A DNA stretch of 24,000 bases from an uncultured Candidatus Saccharibacteria bacterium (lineage in GTDB: Bacteria; Patescibacteriota; CPR2_A; CG2-30-33-46; CAYZYZ01): NCBI GenBank assembly GCA_964482765.1, contig CAYZYZ010000006.1:1-24000 (forward strand). Direction: 5' to 3'. Each line of letters begins with the position of its first letter. The stretch's first letter is position 1. The notes below the pieces were generated by a model, which was given only the letters and a program-made list of their open reading frames with translations, made no database searches and was not told the DNA's origin. This document shows, in pieces, positions 14,534 through 24,000 of this stretch. The position numbers were made by a program, and so were the translations under genes.

Positions 14534-16150
14534 TTAACCTTCAATCTCTCTGAGGTTTTGCTGGAATCCTTTTTCCAGGCTATCGAACATTGCTTTGTGA
14601 AACTCGTCATCAAAGTCTGGCACGGATTTTTTGACCCGTCCGCAAGACTTTTCTTCAAGGCAAAATCCAACCAGCTCGCACTTTATTTTCATGGCTTGAG
14701 CCACTTCATCCTGCCCTAACTCTCGTAATTTCTTCTGAATTGCCGACAACTCTTTCAGGGTCATGGACTGAAGATGCTCTTCCACTGTTGAACAAGTACG
14801 AACCGGATAATAACCGGAGAGCAAATTATATAAATTGTATTCTTGAAGAATATCCAACTTTACTGCCCGGGGCACTATGTAAATCGCCTCCGAAGGCTTT
14901 ACACCTTTTTCAATTAATTTTTCGTAGCAGTTTAAGGCATTCAATCCGACTTCCAAATATCTATACAGGAAATTTTTGTTTTCTTCTTTTTTAAGTTCAG
15001 GAGAAATGGCGAAGAATCTATCAATTTCTGATAATTCCTCTTTGGAAAGATTTTTCTCTTTTATTTTTTCGGAATAACCGCTTAAAAATTCCCGCGCTCT
15101 TTCCGTAGCAAAATACAAAGAGTCAGGAATCATGGGAACAGTTCGGTGGCGCTTCTTCTCGCCCCAAGCCCTCCAGGCAACTCGGGACAAAACCTTAACA
15201 TTTATCGCTTGTCCAAAATCGCGACAAATCTTCCTTTTCTCTTCCAAAAGCTTTTTCCAGCCAGTTTTAATCTTTTCTTTGGAGGAGAATGTTTCTTTTT
15301 CAAGTTCTTTTAAATTTTTAAGCCTTGTCTTAAGCTCTTCAGAATCTATCACTTCTAAACTTTCGATTCTGAAATTCTTCTGCGGAAGTTCTTCTTTTTC
15401 AATCAGCTCTCTCGCTAAATTTTTCTCGTTAGGATTTTTTAAAATGTTAGGAAAAGGATAAATATCACGCGGTGCTTCTAATCGTGTAGCGTAAAGATTT
15501 AAAACACCGAGGTTTTTCAACTCTTTCTCGATTGCTTCAAGAAATAAACCAGCTTCTTTTGGCATCCATTCCCTTTCCGCTTCGTATTCTCTTTTGAAAC
15601 CCACCAAAGATTCAATCGATAAAGAGATTATTCCGGTCCCGTAAATTCCGTAATGTAAAATTTTGGCGGTGGCGTCTTTGTCTAAACCTGCCTTTATTGA
15701 CTCCTTTAAAAATTTGATTATTTCAATTGATTGTTCTTCGTAATCTTTTTTGAGCTTTGGGTCGTCGGCAATTTGGTCTGGATAAACAATATCATCGGGA
15801 GTTGTATCCGTTCTCCGTCCAGATGCCATTAATGATGAAGAAAAAACAATCCCTGTAAAAAGCGTGTCTATAAACTTGCTTGCCTCATAATTGAAAGAAA
15901 AAACCGGTGTTGTAGCAATAGAAGCATGACCCCGTAAAGATGATTTTCTCAAAATCTTTAAAACTTTTTCATCGATATCCTGTCCTTTTTCCTTTGCCTC
16001 CTTATACAAGGCTTTAACTGATTTCCCTTTAAAGGTCAAAAGAGCCGAAAGAGCAGCAATGTCTTCCGGTTTTAATTCTCCTGTTTTGTCTTTTAAAACA
16101 GGGTTTATCCCTAAAAATTTAATATTTAAATCAGAAATTTTATAACTCAT
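14534..16150 (-). CDS. thyX: Long (538 aa) ThyX-like flavin-dependent thymidylate synthase family protein
   Basis: RHRTVPMIPDS fits the ThyX signature RHR-X7-S. The N-terminal LRGHASIATTPVFSFNYEAS resembles the GHxSxxEHxxFxF region. The C-terminal PRAVKLDILQEYNLYNLLSGYYPVRTCSTVEEH resembles the ThyX C-terminal helix region. AAGGA lies 7 nt upstream of the ATG, and the gene is adjacent to a Dcd-family gene. Confidence 0.55.
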   Translation of the reverse strand: MSYKISDLNIKFLGINPVLKDKTGELKPEDIAALSALLTFKGKSVKALYKEAKEKGQDIDEKVLKILRKSSLRGHASIATTPVFSFNYEASKFIDTLFTGIVFSSSLMASGRRTDTTPDDIVYPDQIADDPKLKKDYEEQSIEIIKFLKESIKAGLDKDATAKILHYGIYGTGIISLSIESLVGFKREYEAEREWMPKEAGLFLEAIEKELKNLGVLNLYATRLEAPRDIYPFPNILKNPNEKNLARELIEKEELPQKNFRIESLEVIDSEELKTRLKNLKELEKETFSSKEKIKTGWKKLLEEKRKICRDFGQAINVKVLSRVAWRAWGEKKRHRTVPMIPDSLYFATERAREFLSGYSEKIKEKNLSKEELSEIDRFFAISPELKKEENKNFLYRYLEVGLNALNCYEKLIEKGVKPSEAIYIVPRAVKLDILQEYNLYNLLSGYYPVRTCSTVEEHLQSMTLKELSAIQKKLRELGQDEVAQAMKIKCELVGFCLEEKSCGRVKKSVPDFDDEFHKAMFDSLEKGFQQNLREIEG

Positions 16151-17194: not shown

Positions 17195-17545
17195 TAAACC
17201 AACCTTCTCTGTTTTTATAAGAAAACCTCTGGCTACAATATCACCTCTTAAAACAATTGCTCGCTCACTATTTAAATTATAAACCGAGATTTTCAACTCT
17301 TCACCCTGTTCGTCGGTTGAATTTACAATCTTTGAAGAAACCGATAATCCCTTTGTTTCTAAAATGTCAGCGGGAGTAACTACAAAAACATAGCCCTTGG
17401 GCGGCTCAACTACTACATTTAGAGGAACCAAGCGGCGTTCTTTTGGATTGATTATTACATCCCTCCTGGAAGTTAAATAAAGTATAGAATCTTTCTCGGC
17501 GGGCGAGGCTAGCGTTTTGTCGACTCTTTTTATTGAAGTTTTCAT
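17186..17545 (-). CDS. Degenerate dUTPase-fold-like 119-aa protein, translationally coupled to rplA
   Basis: ATGA overlap with the rplA stop. By eye, DVIINPKERRLVPLNVVVEPPKGYVFVVTP...KIVNSTDEQGEELKISVYNLNSERAIVLRGDIVARGFL follows the trimeric dUTPase beta-strand pattern, but the catalytic motifs are not conserved. Confidence 0.45.
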   Translation of the reverse strand: MKTSIKRVDKTLASPAEKDSILYLTSRRDVIINPKERRLVPLNVVVEPPKGYVFVVTPADILETKGLSVSSKIVNSTDEQGEELKISVYNLNSERAIVLRGDIVARGFLIKTEKVGLPR

Positions 17546-18546
17546 GATTTTTTGGTCAGAGTATTTAATTTATTTATATCTATTTTAACAGATGGACCCA
17601 TCGTCGTCGATAAAGAAATACTTTTTACAAACTGACCCTTCACGGACTGCGGTTTAGACTTGGAAAGGGCTTCAATAAGGGCTTTTAAGTTCTCTTTTAG
17701 CTTCTCTTTCCCAAAAGAAACTTTACCGAATGAGGCATGGACAATTCCGAAACTGTCATTTTTTAGCTCTACTCTGCCTTTTTTGATAAGTTTTATTACT
17801 CTTTCAGGCTTATCGGTTACAGTTTCTGTTTTGGGATTGGGCATTAAACCTTTTGTCCCTAGTATTTTCCCTAGTTTGCCAATTTTCCCCATCATGTCAG
17901 GAGTGGCTATGACAATATCAAAATCGAGGAAACCTTTCTCGATTTTGGAGATTAAGTCGTCGCCGCCTGAAATGTCTGCCCCAGCATCTTTAATTTCTTT
18001 CTCTTTACCGGCACTCACGATTGCCGCCACTTTCACTTTTTTGCCCGCGCCTTGCGGCAAATCAACAACTGTTCTTATATTTTGGTCGGACAGCGATGGT
18101 TTAATTCCAAGTTTTGTGTGAACCTCTACTGACGAATCGAATTTGGTAGTTCCAGTTTTTAGCACCAAATCAATGGCTTCCTCTGGTAAATAAAATTGGC
18201 TTTTATTGATTAGTTTTGAAACCTCTTTGTATTTTTTGCCATGTTTTTTTATGTGAGGCTTTTGGGGCTTATGAGATTTTGGCGCTTCTTTGGTTTCTTC
18301 TTTTTTTGCGACCTTTGAGGACTCCTCTGCGCTCTTTGCGATTTCTTTTGCGTCTTTCGCGATTTCTTTTGCGTCTTTTGCGATTGCGCTCTTTGCGATT
18401 TCTTTTGCGTCTTTTGCGGTTTCTTTTGCGTCTTTTGCGTTTGCATCTTTTGCGTCTTTTGCGTTTGCATCTTTTGCGTCTTTTGCGTTTGCATCTTTTG
18501 CGTCTTTTGCGATTGCAGTTTTCTTTTTTTCTTTTTTCTTAACCAT
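17542..18546 (-). CDS. rplA: 50S ribosomal protein L1 with ~100-aa N-terminal Lys/Ala/Asp repeat extension
   Basis: Canonical L1 begins at HGKKYKEVSKLINKSQFYLPEEAIDLV...VEVHTKLGI. AGGAG lies 6 nt upstream of ATG 18546. I see no usable in-frame start codon near the canonical N-terminus. Confidence 0.9.
   Translation of the reverse strand: MVKKKEKKKTAIAKDAKDANAKDAKDANAKDAKDANAKDAKETAKDAKEIAKSAIAKDAKEIAKDAKEIAKSAEESSKVAKKEETKEAPKSHKPQKPHIKKHGKKYKEVSKLINKSQFYLPEEAIDLVLKTGTTKFDSSVEVHTKLGIKPSLSDQNIRTVVDLPQGAGKKVKVAAIVSAGKEKEIKDAGADISGGDDLISKIEKGFLDFDIVIATPDMMGKIGKLGKILGTKGLMPNPKTETVTDKPERVIKLIKKGRVELKNDSFGIVHASFGKVSFGKEKLKENLKALIEALSKSKPQSVKGQFVKSISLSTTMGPSVKIDINKLNTLTKKS
18330..18520. repeat. Coding tandem repeats (21- and 24-bp units) in the L1 extension
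   Basis: Three exact 24-bp copies of GCGTCTTTTGCGTTTGCATCTTTT (18428-18499), encoding AKDAKDAN. Related 21-bp units encoding AKDAKEI lie at 18330-18427. Confidence 0.9.
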
Positions 18547-20058: not shown

Positions 20059-20101
20059 TTTTTGATTTGTCCAATTTTAAAAAGCCTCTCGGCTTTTCTT
20101 T

Positions 20102-20130
20102 ATAATAAACATTCTTTCAAATTTTGTCAA
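20102..20130 (-). promoter_or_regulatory. Candidate sigma70-type promoter for secE-nusG
   Basis: Minus strand: TTGACA (20130-20125), 17-nt spacer, TATTAT (20107-20102). A small hairpin AAGCC-GAGA-GGCTT lies in the predicted 5' UTR. Confidence 0.5.
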
Positions 20131-20181
20131 ATTTTAAAAAGTGACGCGAAAAGAGTATACCAAGTTTGAAAAATCTAAAAT

Positions 20182-20227
20182 AAAAGTATAACAAATATTC
20201 ACGATCGTGAATATTTGTTATACTTTT
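20182..20227. repeat. 46-bp perfect palindrome (possible terminator or operator) closing the pilin operon
   Basis: AAAAGTATAACAAATATTCACGA|TCGTGAATATTTGTTATACTTTT. I checked all 23 arm positions base by base. Confidence 0.9.
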
Positions 20228-20232
20228 CTCCG

Positions 20233-20385
20233 TTATTCTACTATTCGCGCAAATAGTTCCAAAAATAACCAAGAGCAAAACAAAAAAACCACAATCATTT
20301 CCAATAAAGTAAAACCAAAAAAATTTCTAGAAATTTTTTGAGATTTATTGAAACTGGTGGAAATTGTTGGAAATTTATTGCTCAT
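20233..20385 (-). CDS. 50-aa prepilin-like stub (leader plus hydrophobic N-terminal helix only); possibly a pseudogene
   Basis: Below the ORF-track size cutoff. My translation: MSNKFPTISTSFNKSQKISRNFFGFTLLEMIVVFLFCSWLFLELFARIVE. It contains the class III signal motif G|FTLLEM. Confidence 0.4.
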   Translation of the reverse strand: MSNKFPTISTSFNKSQKISRNFFGFTLLEMIVVFLFCSWLFLELFARIVE

Positions 20386-20394
20386 GATAATTAA

Positions 20395-21480
20395 TTATGG
20401 TAATAAACTTTGAGTCCAGGAATATATCCTTGAAGGGCTACCAGAGCCTAGACCGAGCTGGCTAAAAGTATTATTTCCGGTTCCCCAGACTGTACTATCT
20501 AATTTTAGAGCGAAGGAATGATATTGTCCTGCTGAGATGGCTCCAACATCTGTTAATGAGGTTTTAGTCCAGAAATATCTTGCAGTATCGTCACCTAAAC
20601 CTAGCTGGCCAAAGCCATTTTCTCCTGTTACCCAGACTATACCGTCGGATTTTAAAGCAAGGGAACGCTCCCCCCCTGCGGCGATAGCTGTAATTGCAGT
20701 CAAAGGTGTACTGGCAGCAGTCAAACCTTGTACTGTCCAAGAGTATGTTTGATTATTGTCACCTGAACCGAGCTGGCCATTAAGATTCCATCCAGTACCC
20801 CAGACTGTACCGTCGGATTTTAAAGCTAAGGAATGTTTAGATCCACCTGCCATGGCTGTGACTGCGGTTAAAGAAGTTTGTTTCCAGGATTTCTGATCTC
20901 TGTCATGACCTAGCCCGAGTTGGCCGTAATGATTATATCCTACTACATAGAGTGTGCCATCGAATTTTAAGGCTAAAGAGTGAAAGTTTCCAGCTGCAAT
21001 GGCTATAATTCCAGTTAATGAGGTTTTAGTCCAGAAATATCTTGCAGTATCGTCACCTAAACCTAGCTGGCCAAAGCCATTTTCTCCTGTTACCCAGACT
21101 ATACCGTCGGATTTTAAAGCAAGGGAACGCTCCCCCCCTGCGGCGATAGCTGTAATTGCAGTCAAAGGTGTACTGGCAGCAGTCAAACCTTGTACTGTCC
21201 AAGAGTATGTTTGATTATTGTCACCTGAACCGAGCTGGCCATTAAGATTCCATCCAGTACCCCAGACTGTACCGTCGGATTTTAAAGCTAAGGAATGTTT
21301 AGATCCACCTGCCATGGCTGTGACTGCGGTTAAAGAAGTTTGTTTCCAGGATTTCTGATTTTTGTCATGACCTAGCCCGAGTTGGCCGTAAAAATTATAT
21401 CCTACTACATAGAGTGTGCCATCGGATTTTAGGGCGAGAGAGTGATAAGCTCCTGCGGCGATAGCTCTAATTTTAGTCAC
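20395..21480 (-). CDS. Seven-blade RCC1-repeat beta-propeller protein with no recognisable signal peptide (GTG start)
   Basis: Seven repeats of the form HSLALKSDGTvwxxGxNxxGQLGLG. GGAG lies 7 nt upstream of the GTG. Overlaps the upstream gene by 8 nt. Confidence 0.85.
   Translation of the reverse strand: MTKIRAIAAGAYHSLALKSDGTLYVVGYNFYGQLGLGHDKNQKSWKQTSLTAVTAMAGGSKHSLALKSDGTVWGTGWNLNGQLGSGDNNQTYSWTVQGLTAASTPLTAITAIAAGGERSLALKSDGIVWVTGENGFGQLGLGDDTARYFWTKTSLTGIIAIAAGNFHSLALKFDGTLYVVGYNHYGQLGLGHDRDQKSWKQTSLTAVTAMAGGSKHSLALKSDGTVWGTGWNLNGQLGSGDNNQTYSWTVQGLTAASTPLTAITAIAAGGERSLALKSDGIVWVTGENGFGQLGLGDDTARYFWTKTSLTDVGAISAGQYHSFALKLDSTVWGTGNNTFSQLGLGSGSPSRIYSWTQSLLP
20552..21440. repeat. 462-bp direct tandem duplication inside the RCC1 gene
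   Basis: 20552-20897 matches 21014-21359 with no mismatch that I can see. Scattered mismatches follow for ~80 bp. The two identical antisense track ORFs (20537.. and 20999..) confirm the 462-nt offset. Confidence 0.9.
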
Positions 21481-21871
21481 AAAATAGCTCCAACTTTCTA
21501 TCTACACCAAAAGCTCTACCTTTAATAGTTACCTTTATATTCCCAGTACCTGGCTCATATCTATAACAAATGTTGTTTAAAGGAGGATCAAGGCAGACTG
21601 TGGCACTGCCAACTGGCCCTGTTTTAAGTTTCAGCAAAGCCTCTTCTGTTCCTGCTTCAGCCGCATTATAGGCAGCTTGGGAATTGGCAGCCTCTCCGCC
21701 TGTTTTTAGTTCCGTTACTATAAGTTGGGCTATTGCCAGACCAACGGTCAAAATAATAGTGGAAATAATAACCGCAAAGAGAAGAGTTGATCCAGCACTC
21801 CGACCCGGGTCGGAGTGCTGGGTTGAACCTCTTTTGGAAAATAATTTAGAAATTTTGGATTTATTTTTCAT
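21473..21871 (-). CDS. PilX-like / pseudopilin-like small membrane-anchored protein
   Basis: N-terminal anchor STLLFAVIISTIILTVGLAIAQLIV followed by AANSQAAYNAAEAGTEEAL, which resembles the PilX N-terminal domain pattern. Confidence 0.55.
   Translation of the reverse strand: MKNKSKISKLFSKRGSTQHSDPGRSAGSTLLFAVIISTIILTVGLAIAQLIVTELKTGGEAANSQAAYNAAEAGTEEALLKLKTGPVGSATVCLDPPLNNICYRYEPGTGNIKVTIKGRAFGVDRKLELFCD
21792..21821. repeat. 30-bp perfect palindrome CCAGCACTCCGACCCGGGTCGGAGTGCTGG inside the PilX-like CDS
   Basis: Checked base by base. Encodes TQHSDPGRSAG in frame, immediately before the hydrophobic anchor. Confidence 0.9.
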
Positions 21872-21951
21872 AATAATTTATCATCACCAGCTTTTTTTAA
21901 ATCCGATTAAACTCGCTAAATTGAAAAGTAAAATATACGAATTAACTGATA

Positions 21952-23655
21952 CTAAAATTTTCTATAAGATCCTCCGTTGTTATATACGCCAATATAAAAC
22001 CATCCTCCCCAAATGATCATCTCTTTTCCTGTCCATATGGCAGTATGCTGACGCCTTGCAGCGGGGACGTTAGTAGCTGATGTTGGAATCCAAGTATCGT
22101 TACATGGGTTGTAGCGGGAACCATCGTTTACATAATCAGTGCCACTCGCGCTAGCATTTCCTCCCCAGATGATCATCTCTGTACCGGTCCAGACAGCAGT
22201 ATGAAGCTCTTTGCCAGGTGGAGCGCCGGTGGTGGTTGTTGGGGTCCAGGTATTTGTGGCGGGGTTGTAGCGGGCACCGGTATTGAGCGCTGCCCAAGTC
22301 TGTCTAGATCCACTGCAAGGAGGAAGACAACCCCATCCTCCCCAGATAATCATTTCTGTTCCTGTCCAAACAGCGGTGAAATCTTCTCTACCAGAGGGAG
22401 CATTAGTGATTGTTGTTGATGTCCAGGTATTAGTAGTTGGGTTGTAGCGACCACCGGTATTTAAATAACCACTGCCTCCCCAGATGATCATTTGATTAGC
22501 TGTTGCGGGATTACCGGTTTCCCCGGTCCAAACAGCAGTATGTCCGTCTCTAGCAGAAGGAGCATTGGTAAAGGATGTTGAAGTCCAGGTATTTGTGGCA
22601 GGATTGTAGCGGGCACCTGAATTAGTTTGACCACCTGCATTATATCCTCCCCAGATAATCATTTCTGTTCCTGTCCAAACAGCAGTATGATAGGTTCTAG
22701 CAGAAGGAGCATTGGTGGTGGATGTTGGGGTCCAGGTATTTGTGGCAGGGTTGTAGCGGGCACCGTCATTATAATAATCCCCGCCATACGCGCCACCATT
22801 TCCTCCCCAGATGATCATTTGATTAGCTGTTGCAGGATTACCGGTTTCCCCGGTCCAAACAGCAGTATGTCCACCTCTATAAGAAGGGGAGTAGTAGGCG
22901 GGTAATATCCGGACCCAGGTATCAGTAGTTGGATTGTAGCGGGCACCGTCATTATAGTCACCATTTAATACGCTTCCTCCCCAGATAATCATTTCTGTAC
23001 CGGTCCATATGGCAGTGTGTCTATATCTACCACCCGGATCTCTGACGCCTGTTGTTAAATTTGGTTTGTCTGTTGCCCAATTCCAAATTTTCTCTTCGTA
23101 ATAATTCCTTTTGGATACTATACTACTTAAGGTGATTTTGGGTTTGGTGCCTGTTCTGTCTGAGGCTTCTTTGGCTTCGGCTTCAATAGTTAGTTTAAAG
23201 AAAGGTTGAATATTATTAGAGCAATCCGAAAAAACATTGTCATCCACATTGAAGGTAAGAATGTTAGTAGAGTCGGTGGTTAAGTTTTGGCTGGTTCCTC
23301 CTGGGGGGCTGGTCATTATGATTTTCCCGCTCGAAAGCTTAAATTCAATCTGTATATTGTCTTTGCTTGTGGTTGTAATGATGTTATTTGTTTTATCTAC
23401 ATTAGTAGTTTTTGCCAATCTTGCTTCTCTGGAAATAGTCTCTAGAGCATACCTTGCATCTTGCTGAATCTTTCTGATGTTGTTGGTTTTTTTGGCTACA
23501 TTGTAGATAGTAATAAAAAGCTCACTGGTAGCTGTCAGAACTAGGGCAAAAACAGCAATAACCATAATCATTTCCAACAAAGTAAAACCACAGTTCGCAG
23601 AACTGGCGCGAAAAGGAACGCGGAACCGACGCCTAAATTTCTCTCGCTGTATCAT
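21952..23655 (-). CDS. Prepilin-type (PilW/GspJ-like) minor pilin fused to a seven-blade Kelch-like beta-propeller
   Basis: Leader MIQREKFRRRFRVPFRASSANCG|FTLLEMIMVIAVFALVL, then QQDARYALETISREARLA (PilW/GspJ-like). Seven repeats follow of the form RYNPxTNTWT...HTAVWTGxEMIIWGG. AAGGAG lies 6 nt upstream of the ATG. Confidence 0.85.
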   Translation of the reverse strand: MIQREKFRRRFRVPFRASSANCGFTLLEMIMVIAVFALVLTATSELFITIYNVAKKTNNIRKIQQDARYALETISREARLAKTTNVDKTNNIITTTSKDNIQIEFKLSSGKIIMTSPPGGTSQNLTTDSTNILTFNVDDNVFSDCSNNIQPFFKLTIEAEAKEASDRTGTKPKITLSSIVSKRNYYEEKIWNWATDKPNLTTGVRDPGGRYRHTAIWTGTEMIIWGGSVLNGDYNDGARYNPTTDTWVRILPAYYSPSYRGGHTAVWTGETGNPATANQMIIWGGNGGAYGGDYYNDGARYNPATNTWTPTSTTNAPSARTYHTAVWTGTEMIIWGGYNAGGQTNSGARYNPATNTWTSTSFTNAPSARDGHTAVWTGETGNPATANQMIIWGGSGYLNTGGRYNPTTNTWTSTTITNAPSGREDFTAVWTGTEMIIWGGWGCLPPCSGSRQTWAALNTGARYNPATNTWTPTTTTGAPPGKELHTAVWTGTEMIIWGGNASASGTDYVNDGSRYNPCNDTWIPTSATNVPAARRQHTAIWTGKEMIIWGGWFYIGVYNNGGSYRKF

Positions 23656-23803
23656 AAACTCTCCTTATTATCTGGACTAAAGCTTGCTGATAAATATTTT
23701 CTTTATGCTTATTTCTAAACTGCTTGTAAATTTCAAATGCTCCGCCCCTGATGGTATATGATTCTTGTTTGTATAAAAAATTGCCTTGTTTGTTTTGCTT
23801 CAT
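23633..23803 (-). pseudogene. N-terminal fragment of a GxxExxY-family protein (56 codons)
   Basis: My translation: MKQNKQGNFLYKQESYTIRGGAFEIYKQFRNKHKENIYQQALVQ..., which resembles the N-terminus of that family. The frame then runs into the start of the pilin-Kelch gene and stops. Confidence 0.3.
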
Positions 23804-23902
23804 ATTATTGGATAGTTTTGCGTTTTGGTTGTGCGTTAGTTTAGCGATTCATAAAGTTCTGCGTCAGTTTTGTGTTAATCATTCTGCGTCCTGTTTAGCG
23901 AA

Positions 23903-24000
23903 TTACTTTCCCCAGTTTGTTAAAATAGTTGAGGTTTCCACTTTGTTTGTAGACCCTTTTTCTACCCATGTTACTTTTACTGTAACTTTTCTTTTATCAG
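23903..24000 (-). CDS. 3' end of a further pilin/pseudopilin-like gene (5' part outside the window)
   Basis: The frame from 23998 reads DKRKVTVKVTWVEKGSTNKVETSTILTNWGK then stop. This beta-strand pattern is typical of minor-pilin C-termini. Weak evidence, based on only 31 aa. Confidence 0.35.
   Translation of the reverse strand, partial: DKRKVTVKVTWVEKGSTNKVETSTILTNWGK

Follow-up and report, generated by a model that had tools for sequence, protein, structure and literature searches.

The stretch of DNA considered here, referred to as the window, comprises the 24,000 nt at positions 1–24,000 of contig CAYZYZ010000006.1 (GCA_964482765.1), and all coordinates below are those of the whole window. 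On its minus strand, between 20182 and 24000, lies a cluster of genes in which beta-propellers are associated with pilin-like N-termini. In the order of transcription, this cluster comprises the end of an upstream open reading frame (ORF), ORFs of 56, 567, 132, 361, and 50 aa, and a 46-nt palindrome, 3′ of which a near-consensus promoter leads to secE, nusG, rplK, and rplA. A first-pass annotation saw here a minor-pilin operon with propeller adhesins. The features that it described are present, and the propellers do belong to pilin modules, but neither the separate status that it gave to the RCC1 propeller gene nor its claim of novelty survived the analysis below, in which related contigs or loci bear L-numbers (e.g., L001, L005, L086) and homologous proteins P-numbers (P0124, P0126, P0274).

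The Kelch pilin and the upstream end of the cluster

The 567-aa ORF (21952–23655, minus strand) combines a prepilin signal with a Kelch propeller. Its first 195 residues (23071..23655) form a pilin module composed of a 23-aa leader, the motif G|FTLLEM, the hydrophobic helix alpha1, and a globular portion of small size. This protein scores 25.0 bits against N_methyl (PF07963; cut-off 21.2) and 28.1 bits against TIGR02532 (cut-off 16.3) and hence shows the full set of class III signal features, namely the Gly that ends the leader, F/M-x-x-x-E, a hydrophobic alpha1, and a score above a curated cut-off. The rest of the ORF (21952..23070) matches Kelch_KLHDC2 (PF24681) with an E value of 1.2e-49 (169 bits, cut-off 50) and contains seven blades of the 'WTG..MIIWGG' type. 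Residues ~205–567 were modelled by AlphaFold2 (AF2) with a predicted local distance difference test score (pLDDT) above 90, and a Foldseek search with this Kelch model found Kelch domains at E values of ~1e-16. A pilin module and a domain that is not pilus-specific are therefore present in one polypeptide, as the first-pass annotation had proposed on the idea of a pilin fused to a Kelch propeller, and, judged by its profile matches, the 567-aa protein is a true prepilin that carries a seven-blade Kelch propeller at its C-terminus. The same annotation had likened this pilin to PilW/GspJ. The corresponding profile, TIGR01711, matches residues 23–64 only, at 19.2 bits (cut-off 64.85); similarly, the matches of Pfam and PDB profile searches were confined to the N-terminal motif.

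The relatives of the two parts of this protein are very different. A search with the whole 567-aa sequence is swamped by Kelch proteins with unrelated N-termini, and the Kelch repeats have thousands of relatives, at 45–54% identity, in Verrucomicrobia, Acidobacteria, and others. Unrelated N-termini are found in the five Kelch relatives examined, and the pilin motif is absent from the best 120 matches, with the exception of the query itself. Bacterial proteins, in their thousands, are closest to the Kelch part, and the description of the propellers as 'eukaryote-like' is misleading; they are of ordinary bacterial types. A recent horizontal transfer of the Kelch module, to which the 49% GC content at 22–23 kb might have pointed, was considered and ruled out: the GC content at third codon positions (GC3) of the Kelch stretch is 0.386, which is genome-like and therefore no sign of a recent transfer, and the excess of GC lies at codon position 2, where it is due to the amino-acid composition.

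The origin of the fusion is illuminated by L086, the CPR contig that carries P0126. The local order there is the same, and a 210-aa pilin is directly followed by a gene in which a PilX-like and an RCC1 part are fused. The L086 pilin has the same 'MIQREKFR' start as the window pilin module, to which it is 37% identical (E 7e-24), and it terminates, after '...SRDYEYQK', exactly where the window sequence '...SKRNYYEEK' runs into Kelch; the Kelch propeller is therefore a C-terminal graft specific to the lineage of the window. In L090, the homologue of the Kelch pilin ends at 110 aa, and the gene next to it is unrelated. Kelch blades 2 and 4, both of which carry the insert 'ETGNPATANQ', share a stretch of 93 nt with 92% identity (22468–22560 and 22795–22887), and this repeat points to an intragenic duplication or conversion in the Kelch gene too, i.e., in addition to the repeats of the RCC1 ORF described below.

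At the start of the Kelch-pilin gene, the ribosome-binding site, ATG, and first codons, 'TAAGGAGAGTTTATGATACAGCGAGAGAAATTTA' (23622..23667 to within a few bases, minus strand), are common to the window, L086, and L090. Letter for letter, the window, L086 (544–577), and L090 (178–211) share a 34-nt string that extends from the ribosome-binding site through the ATG to the 'IQREKF' codons. Downstream of this string, the pilin sequences have diverged to the 37% identity given above, and in L086 a degenerate first 'GFTPLE' precedes the real leader. The 34-nt string may have been conserved as a boundary for recombination, or it may act as a regulatory leader.

The same start overlaps the 3′ end of a 56-aa ORF (23633..23803, minus strand), which appears to be the N-terminal fragment of a GxxExxY/PDDEXK_3 gene on the basis of weak matches to PF13366 (E 0.0075) and to TIGR04256 (E 0.0094, profile positions 2–34 of 116). 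Both the fragment and the overlap are kept in L090, so that the earlier observation of a gene fragment overlapped by the start of the first complete gene holds. Still further upstream, an ORF that runs off the window has 31 visible codons and a stop (23903..24000, minus strand), of which the last are '...VTVKVTWVEKGSTNKVETSTILTNWGK', with the ORF ending at 23903. These 31 codons give no family match and the label 'pilin-like/PilV-like', which this ORF had received, comes from the gene order only; it may nevertheless be the first pilin-like gene of the cluster. The spacer between this ORF and the GxxExxY fragment (23805–23900, minus strand) contains repeated ACGCAGAA/ACGCACAA/ACGCAAAA motifs, and similar motifs precede the copy of the fragment in L090.

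The PilX-like and RCC1 reading frames

The 132-aa ORF (21473..21871, minus strand) encodes a PilX/GspK-like minor pilin module with the motif G|STLLF and no Glu5. The lack of Glu5 is typical of capping subunits of the GspK/PilX type. The AF2 model of this protein is a pilin lollipop (pLDDT 80.9), with a helix at residues 26–84 and four strands, and thus has the long N-terminal helix and small beta-sheet that, together with the missing Glu at +5, characterize the PilX/GspK type. In word-indexed searches, the 132-aa protein retrieved no sequence but its own, and the pilin module of the Kelch gene retrieved almost nothing; an exhaustive HMMER search with the 132-aa protein yielded 281 homologues. 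The protein aligns with this family along its full length, and 55 of the 148 homologues scanned matched PilX_N at E <= 0.001 (the best at 1.7e-9). Its closest relatives are the N-terminal domains of longer proteins: in P0124 (534 aa) and P0126 (516 aa), a PilX-like N-domain is followed by seven RCC1 repeats within a single ORF, and in other relatives the C-terminal modules are Laminin_G_3, CBM_4_9, DUF2341, Fib_succ_major, or BNR.

A perfect, GC-rich palindrome of 30 nt (21792..21821) lies in frame within the leader of the PilX-like ORF, and on its two sides is the imperfect repeat GGTTCAAC/GGATCAAC, by which 'GST' is duplicated. The palindrome would form a hairpin with a free energy (dG) of -30.2 kcal/mol (z = -5.4), and the alignment with P0126 has a gap at this position, which agrees with the previous proposal of an in-frame palindrome insertion in the signal region. 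That the palindrome might be a mobile element present in several copies was considered and rejected, as the window, the retrieved loci, and viral contigs yielded no second copy.

The RCC1 ORF (20395..21480, minus strand) has 361 codons, seven repeats, and a GTG start with a GGAG 7 nt upstream, and its start overlaps the PilX-like stop by 8 nt. It matches WD40_RLD (PF25390) with an E value of 1e-77 (262 bits, cut-off 150) and contains seven RCC1_2 repeats, so that the cluster encodes both a Kelch and an RCC1 propeller of seven blades with Pfam scores above the gathering threshold. The N-terminus, 'MTKIRAIAAGAYHS', is without a hydrophobic signal peptide, and the profile scan of this ORF returned RCC1 families only and no PilY1/PilC-type domain; the RCC1 ORF therefore has neither the Sec signal nor the C-terminal propeller domain that define a PilY1/PilC tip adhesin.

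A different relationship between these two ORFs emerges from the comparison with P0126, in which the sequence at the junction is '...GKAFGVLRKLEINLVPDIVITKIAAGNDHSLAL'. In the window, the PilX-like ORF ends with '...GRAFGVDRKLELFCD' and a stop, and the RCC1 ORF begins with 'VTKIRAIAAGAYHSLAL'; the two frames are jointly open over 21476–21501 only. If one T is deleted from a TTTT run within this overlap (21481..21484, minus strand), the result is '...RKLELFVTKIRAIAAG...' and a fusion of 491 aa, which can be aligned with P0126 from one end to the other (42% identity, E 1e-86), the junction being collinear. This collinearity identifies the run as the putative site of a +1 frameshift between the PilX-like module and the RCC1 propeller. 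The TTTT is found in all four assemblies that cover the site (the window, L001, L089, and the slightly diverged L091) and is therefore real rather than a sequencing error. Moreover, in the alignment with P0126, the GGAG corresponds to conserved Leu-Glu codons and the GTG to an ancestral Val codon, and these sequences therefore need not have evolved as a start signal. On this comparison, the PilX-like and RCC1 ORFs are taken to be the two halves of one ancestral gene, split by the insertion of one base. A pilin module and a propeller are thus encoded together in P0124 and P0126, and in the window only after the removal of one T. The proposal that RCC1 is a separate gene in the 'PilY1 position' is consequently not supported, given the fused state of P0124 and P0126, the collinearity of the window ORFs, and the lack of both a signal peptide and a PilY1-type domain.

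A +1 slip of the ribosome at UUU-U would re-pair perfectly, and a GGAG lies three bases upstream of the site, a spacing also seen in prfB. RNA structure at the site does not exceed that expected by chance (z = -0.3). A scan of metagenomes with RCC1 returned a strain variant only. In L087, a CPR2-related contig, a standalone 122-aa PilX-like gene (16–384) is found directly upstream of a 534-aa PilX-like::RCC1 gene (542–2149), which shows that paralogous caps with and without a propeller can exist side by side.

Repeats, remnants, and borders of the cluster

The RCC1 ORF contains two exact copies of a 346-nt sequence, each of which corresponds to a unit of about three blades (20552..21359, minus strand, where 20552–20897 is identical to 21014–21359). 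They belong to an intragenic tandem repeat with a period of 462 nt, 1.9 copies, and 98% identity, which bears out the exact three-blade duplication of the first-pass annotation. A 207-aa, four-blade allele that lacks exactly one unit is present in L001, in L091, and in a third JGI contig (P0274). Within the 116-nt spacer that separates the 346-nt copies in the window, there are ~51 nt that are found in no four-blade allele; the seven-blade allele is therefore neither an assembly artefact, which was considered and ruled out, nor a simple duplication of the four-blade contigs. The four-blade form is either a deletion derivative or an assembly (short-read) collapse.

Strains also differ in the last RCC1 blade, where L091 (570–600, ~20447–20476 in the window) has nine substitutions within 30 nt. 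These result in N182G, T184A, and S186G plus five silent changes and shift the blade towards the consensus 'G.N..GQLG'. In nusG, by comparison, nearly all the differences among the strains are synonymous. From these sequences, the L091 patch suggests gene conversion between blades.

The last ORF of the cluster (20233..20385, minus strand) is a prepilin stub of 50 aa, in which a leader and the motif G|FTLLEMIVV are followed by unrelated sequence and a stop only 27 residues past the cleavage site, so that no globular pilin domain is present. Its reading as a truncated last pilin agrees with the motif and the early stop, but its profile scores are just below the cut-offs (N_methyl, 17.9 vs 21.2 bits; TIGR02532, 15.1 vs 16.3 bits). 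Its 5′ part matches the 5′ end of the Kelch-pilin gene over 34 nt with 91% identity, and the stub is unchanged in L001, L085, and L091; it is probably what is left, at the 5′ end, of a former pilin gene. The cluster then ends, as had been noted, in a perfect palindrome of 46 nt (20182..20227, minus strand), which is followed by a U-rich tail (dG -25.9 kcal/mol, z = -7.3), and palindrome and tail together are probably the intrinsic terminator of the pilin cluster.

Beyond this palindrome, a near-consensus promoter, TTGACA-17-TATTAT (20102..20130, minus strand), with 11 matches out of 12, marks the start of a separate secE-nusG unit. The cluster, which is followed by the terminator-like hairpin and this promoter, is distinct from the secE-nusG-rplKA block. 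In the region upstream of secE (20066–20141, minus strand), the motif 'CTTTTTAAAATTKGACAAA' occurs twice, 57 nt apart, with one copy being the -35 box of the strong secE promoter, and a small GC hairpin, AAAAGCCTCTCGGCTTTT (20080–20097), lies between the two copies.

No homologues of the module were found in 80 related secE-nusG loci. Conserved synteny with secE is thereby ruled out (0/80 loci), and the closest of these loci, L005, has rplS-rnhB-yraN upstream of secE. On the evidence of gene order and sequence, the cluster is best described as a variable island and is no conserved neighbour of secE.

The remainder of the window is housekeeping in nature (MreBCD, ProRS, RseP, IspG/H, UppS, RRF, PyrH, Tsf, S2, ThyX, and dUTPases). 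The relatives of NusG are from Patescibacteria, with a best match of 86% in a metagenome-assembled genome (MAG) and the next in Azambacteria and other Parcubacteria-type MAGs, and the organism context of the cluster is a Parcubacteria-like genome within the ultra-small Patescibacteria. No known RNA, tRNA, or prophage was found in the window, where the single Rfam match is a hairpin artefact and the PHROG matches are generic repeat matches only. Ribosomal protein L1 (rplA, 17542–18546, minus strand) has an N-terminal extension of ~100 aa made of 'AKDAKDAN/AKEIAKS' repeats at 18328–18517, with tandem periods of 9, 24, and 57 nt; its product is 334 aa in the window and 326 aa in the otherwise identical contig L001. 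The ThyX (Thy1) gene (14534–16150, minus strand) adjoins two genes of the dUTPase family (dcd-like, 179 aa; dut, 119 aa) and encodes 538 aa, which is about twice the usual length of ThyX.

Propeller-bearing pilins and their proposed place at the pilus tip

The idea that a tip pilin might carry a propeller is not new. Raynaud et al. (2021) defined modular pilins, which are widespread, as a pilin module onto which a functional module, probably exposed at the tip, has been grafted; their catalogue contains >1,200 proteins with 264 architectures, many of them from the candidate phyla radiation (CPR), and Dataset S1 lists both IPR012902-IPR000408 (RCC1) and IPR012902-IPR006652 (Kelch) (PMC8179133). 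In Nanosynbacter lyticus TM7x (Saccharibacteria), a 2024 preprint described the minor pilin PilX2, which has a heptabladed RCC1 propeller and which, like PilX1, is without a canonical PilD signal; pilX2 is in a locus of five pilins (type IV pilus (T4P)-2 locus three), its deletion approximately halved host binding while leaving competence unaffected, and PilX2 was proposed to be the tip adhesin of the thin pilus (PMC11623550). With an RCC1-propeller PilX2 (PMC11623550) and Kelch and RCC1 modular pilins (PMC8179133) already known, the window cluster is a further, rearranged example of the propeller-bearing modular pilins and not the novel pilus-tip module of the first-pass annotation.

The window resembles the TM7x system in that both come from the Patescibacteria. 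After correction of the frameshift, the architecture is also alike, with a heptabladed RCC1 propeller at the C-terminus and an N-terminus that is PilX-like but lacks a canonical PilD signal, and in both cases the gene is surrounded by further minor pilin genes and separate from those of the assembly machinery. It differs in that the gene is split by a +1 frameshift, with the propeller detached as annotated, in that the propeller has an exact internal repeat and a four-blade allele, and in that a neighbouring pilin carries Kelch. PilB (vWA) and PilC (lectin) of Streptococcus sanguinis likewise combine a small class III pilin module with a bulky, grafted binding module (PMC8179133, PMC9934059), and the Kelch pilin fits exactly the pattern whereby the grafted module belongs to a family that is not specific to pili and is joined by a short linker (PMC8179133). 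Unlike the vWA and ConA-like lectin modules, those of the window are beta-propellers in a CPR host, known from sequence and models.

The classical FimU-PilV-PilW-PilX-PilY1-PilE clusters of Pseudomonas, Neisseria, and Myxococcus also have minor pilin genes in a row, a PilX-like protein without Glu5, a seven-blade propeller as the presumptive adhesive part, and a pilin gene in last place. In the window, however, the propellers are within pilins and there is no separate, Sec-exported PilY1 and no PilY1/PilC domain; moreover, PilV and PilW are without profile support and the last pilin is a 50-aa stub. With the GspI-GspJ-GspK tip and with ComZ of Thermus thermophilus (6qvi), the likeness lies in a capping subunit with the motif 'A..AAEAG', an extra large domain, and no Glu5, but this domain interrupts the pilin fold of GspK and ComZ whereas in the window it is appended C-terminally, and the similarity is weak (ComZ being the best, though non-significant, PDB sequence match of the PilX-like profile, E 0.34). 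By analogy, the window cluster would work like the PilVWX-PilY1 tip complex while being outside the PilY1 family.

The explanation that we favour, to which we would attach a probability of roughly 75%, is that the locus is a lineage-specific T4P minor (tip/priming) pilin cluster of modular pilins, consisting of the Kelch pilin and the split PilX-like/RCC1 gene, in which the propellers are attachment heads. Through the hydrophobic helices at their N-termini, the pilin modules would join the pilus as assembly begins, alongside the other minor pilins, and would for this reason come to lie at its distal end. At this tip, the propellers (Kelch, and RCC1 where attached) would serve the attachment to a host cell or a surface, as lectin-like or protein-binding heads for glycans or proteins of the host surface. 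The frameshifted gene would produce a bare 132-aa PilX-like cap and perhaps also, from the GTG, a leaderless and presumably cytoplasmic RCC1 protein; display of the RCC1 head would require either +1 slippage of the ribosome at UUU-U or a reversion of the T run. The detached RCC1 might then be an unused cytoplasmic propeller, part of a low-level frameshifted fusion, or one state of a reversible switch. The rapid flux attributed to this region is apparent in the repeat, the four-blade allele, the in-frame palindrome, the pilin stub, and the gene fragment, all of which are present, and the cluster may well have been reshaped repeatedly, by the grafting of Kelch, recombination between RCC1 blades, insertion of the palindrome, reduction of a pilin to a stub, and retention of the GxxExxY remnant, with the hairpin terminator at its end.

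Several observations weigh against this explanation. The globular part of the pilin module of the 567-aa protein was modelled poorly (AF2 pLDDT 30–70), and the PilW/GspJ identity of this gene, which has no profile support beyond the shared N-terminal helix, is only positional, i.e., based on its place upstream of the PilX-like gene. The 132-aa protein itself scores 17.8 bits against PilX_N (PF14341; cut-off 25.5; profile positions 1–50 of 51), and removal of the 12-aa insert encoded by the palindrome raises this score only to 19.6 bits. A Foldseek search of the PDB with the model of this protein gave nothing significant (matches to GspI at E ~3.5), and the likeness to PilX2 of TM7x is one of architecture. 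Neither pilB/C/D/M/T nor a major pilin gene was found within the 24,000-nt window. Finally, the frameshift, stub, gene fragment, and four-blade allele might be signs of partial decay, with some of the cluster no longer working.

This last point can be extended to the whole locus, which would then be the remnant of a once functional pilin island that has accumulated successive lesions and whose propellers are no longer displayed. It would account for the fixation of the frameshift in all four assemblies covering the site, the 207-aa allele in three assemblies, the truncation at 110 aa of the Kelch-pilin homologue in L090 (followed by an unrelated gene), the pilin stub and GxxExxY fragment, and the absence of the module from 80 related secE loci. 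It would not account for the intact 567-aa Kelch pilin with its canonical signal, for an RCC1 frame that has stayed open for 361 codons, for genome-like codon usage, or for sequences that are identical, or nearly so, between samples; furthermore, L087 shows that a PilX-like cap can legitimately be bare. We consider such a general decay unlikely.

The same lesions lend themselves to a more elaborate interpretation, which seems to us rather less probable again, in which the locus is an adhesin cassette that can be switched: the T run, by slippage in the DNA or on the ribosome, would set the presence of the RCC1 head on the tip pilin, recombination between the 346-nt repeats would toggle the propeller between seven and four blades, and the 34-nt boundary and the stub would serve in the swapping of heads. 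If true, the Kelch, RCC1, and lectin head modules would be swapped whole between strains via the 34-nt boundary and the pilin 5′ stub, and this would amount to phase and antigenic variation of host-attachment organelles in CPR bacteria.

It is very doubtful, in our opinion, that RCC1 is an independent, non-pilin tip adhesin that replaces PilY1, uses its own start codon, and is recruited by PilV/W/X-like minor pilins. The gene order does resemble fimU-pilVWXY1E, the GTG is preceded by a GGAG at 7 nt and opens an intact frame of 361 codons, PilY1 likewise ends in a seven-blade propeller (PMC8179133), and standalone PilX-like proteins of ~122 aa exist (L087). However, a protein without a signal peptide or hydrophobic N-terminus has no evident export route, this one matches RCC1 only and no PilY1/PilC domain, its closest homologues are fused in one ORF with which the window ORFs are collinear, and both the GGAG and the GTG are conserved codons ('L-E' and 'V') of the ancestral coding sequence. 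The least convincing alternative, and a highly improbable one, is a competence (Com) pilus or type II secretion-like pseudopilus, in place of an adhesive pilus, with propellers that capture DNA or substrates, for which sub-threshold matches between the pilin module and the NCBIfam profiles ComGF, ComGD, and ComGE (E 1e-6 to 1e-4) and the non-significant PDB match to ComZ, a DNA-binding modular tip pilin of Thermus, might be invoked, but the ComG and ComZ matches are far below curated cut-offs and mainly cover the shared N-terminal helix, and Kelch and RCC1 propellers are not known to bind DNA in pili. The deletion of pilX2 in TM7x, moreover, affected host binding and not competence (PMC11623550).

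The reading of the locus as a tip-pilin cluster with propeller heads matters because, in CPR bacteria, or Patescibacteria, whose lives are spent attached to other microbes, type IV pili are the attachment device with the best support. L086, without Kelch, and the window, with Kelch, provide a before-and-after case of the grafting of a head onto a tip pilin, and the family of PilX-type tip pilins can be seen to exchange heads that include RCC1, LamG, CBM, FISUMP, and BNR. Variation in the heads extends to the level of the population, where the frameshift, the seven- and four-blade alleles, and the gene-conversion patch are found. The locus should therefore be useful for studies of the evolution of host range in episymbionts, in which it extends published ideas and overturns none.

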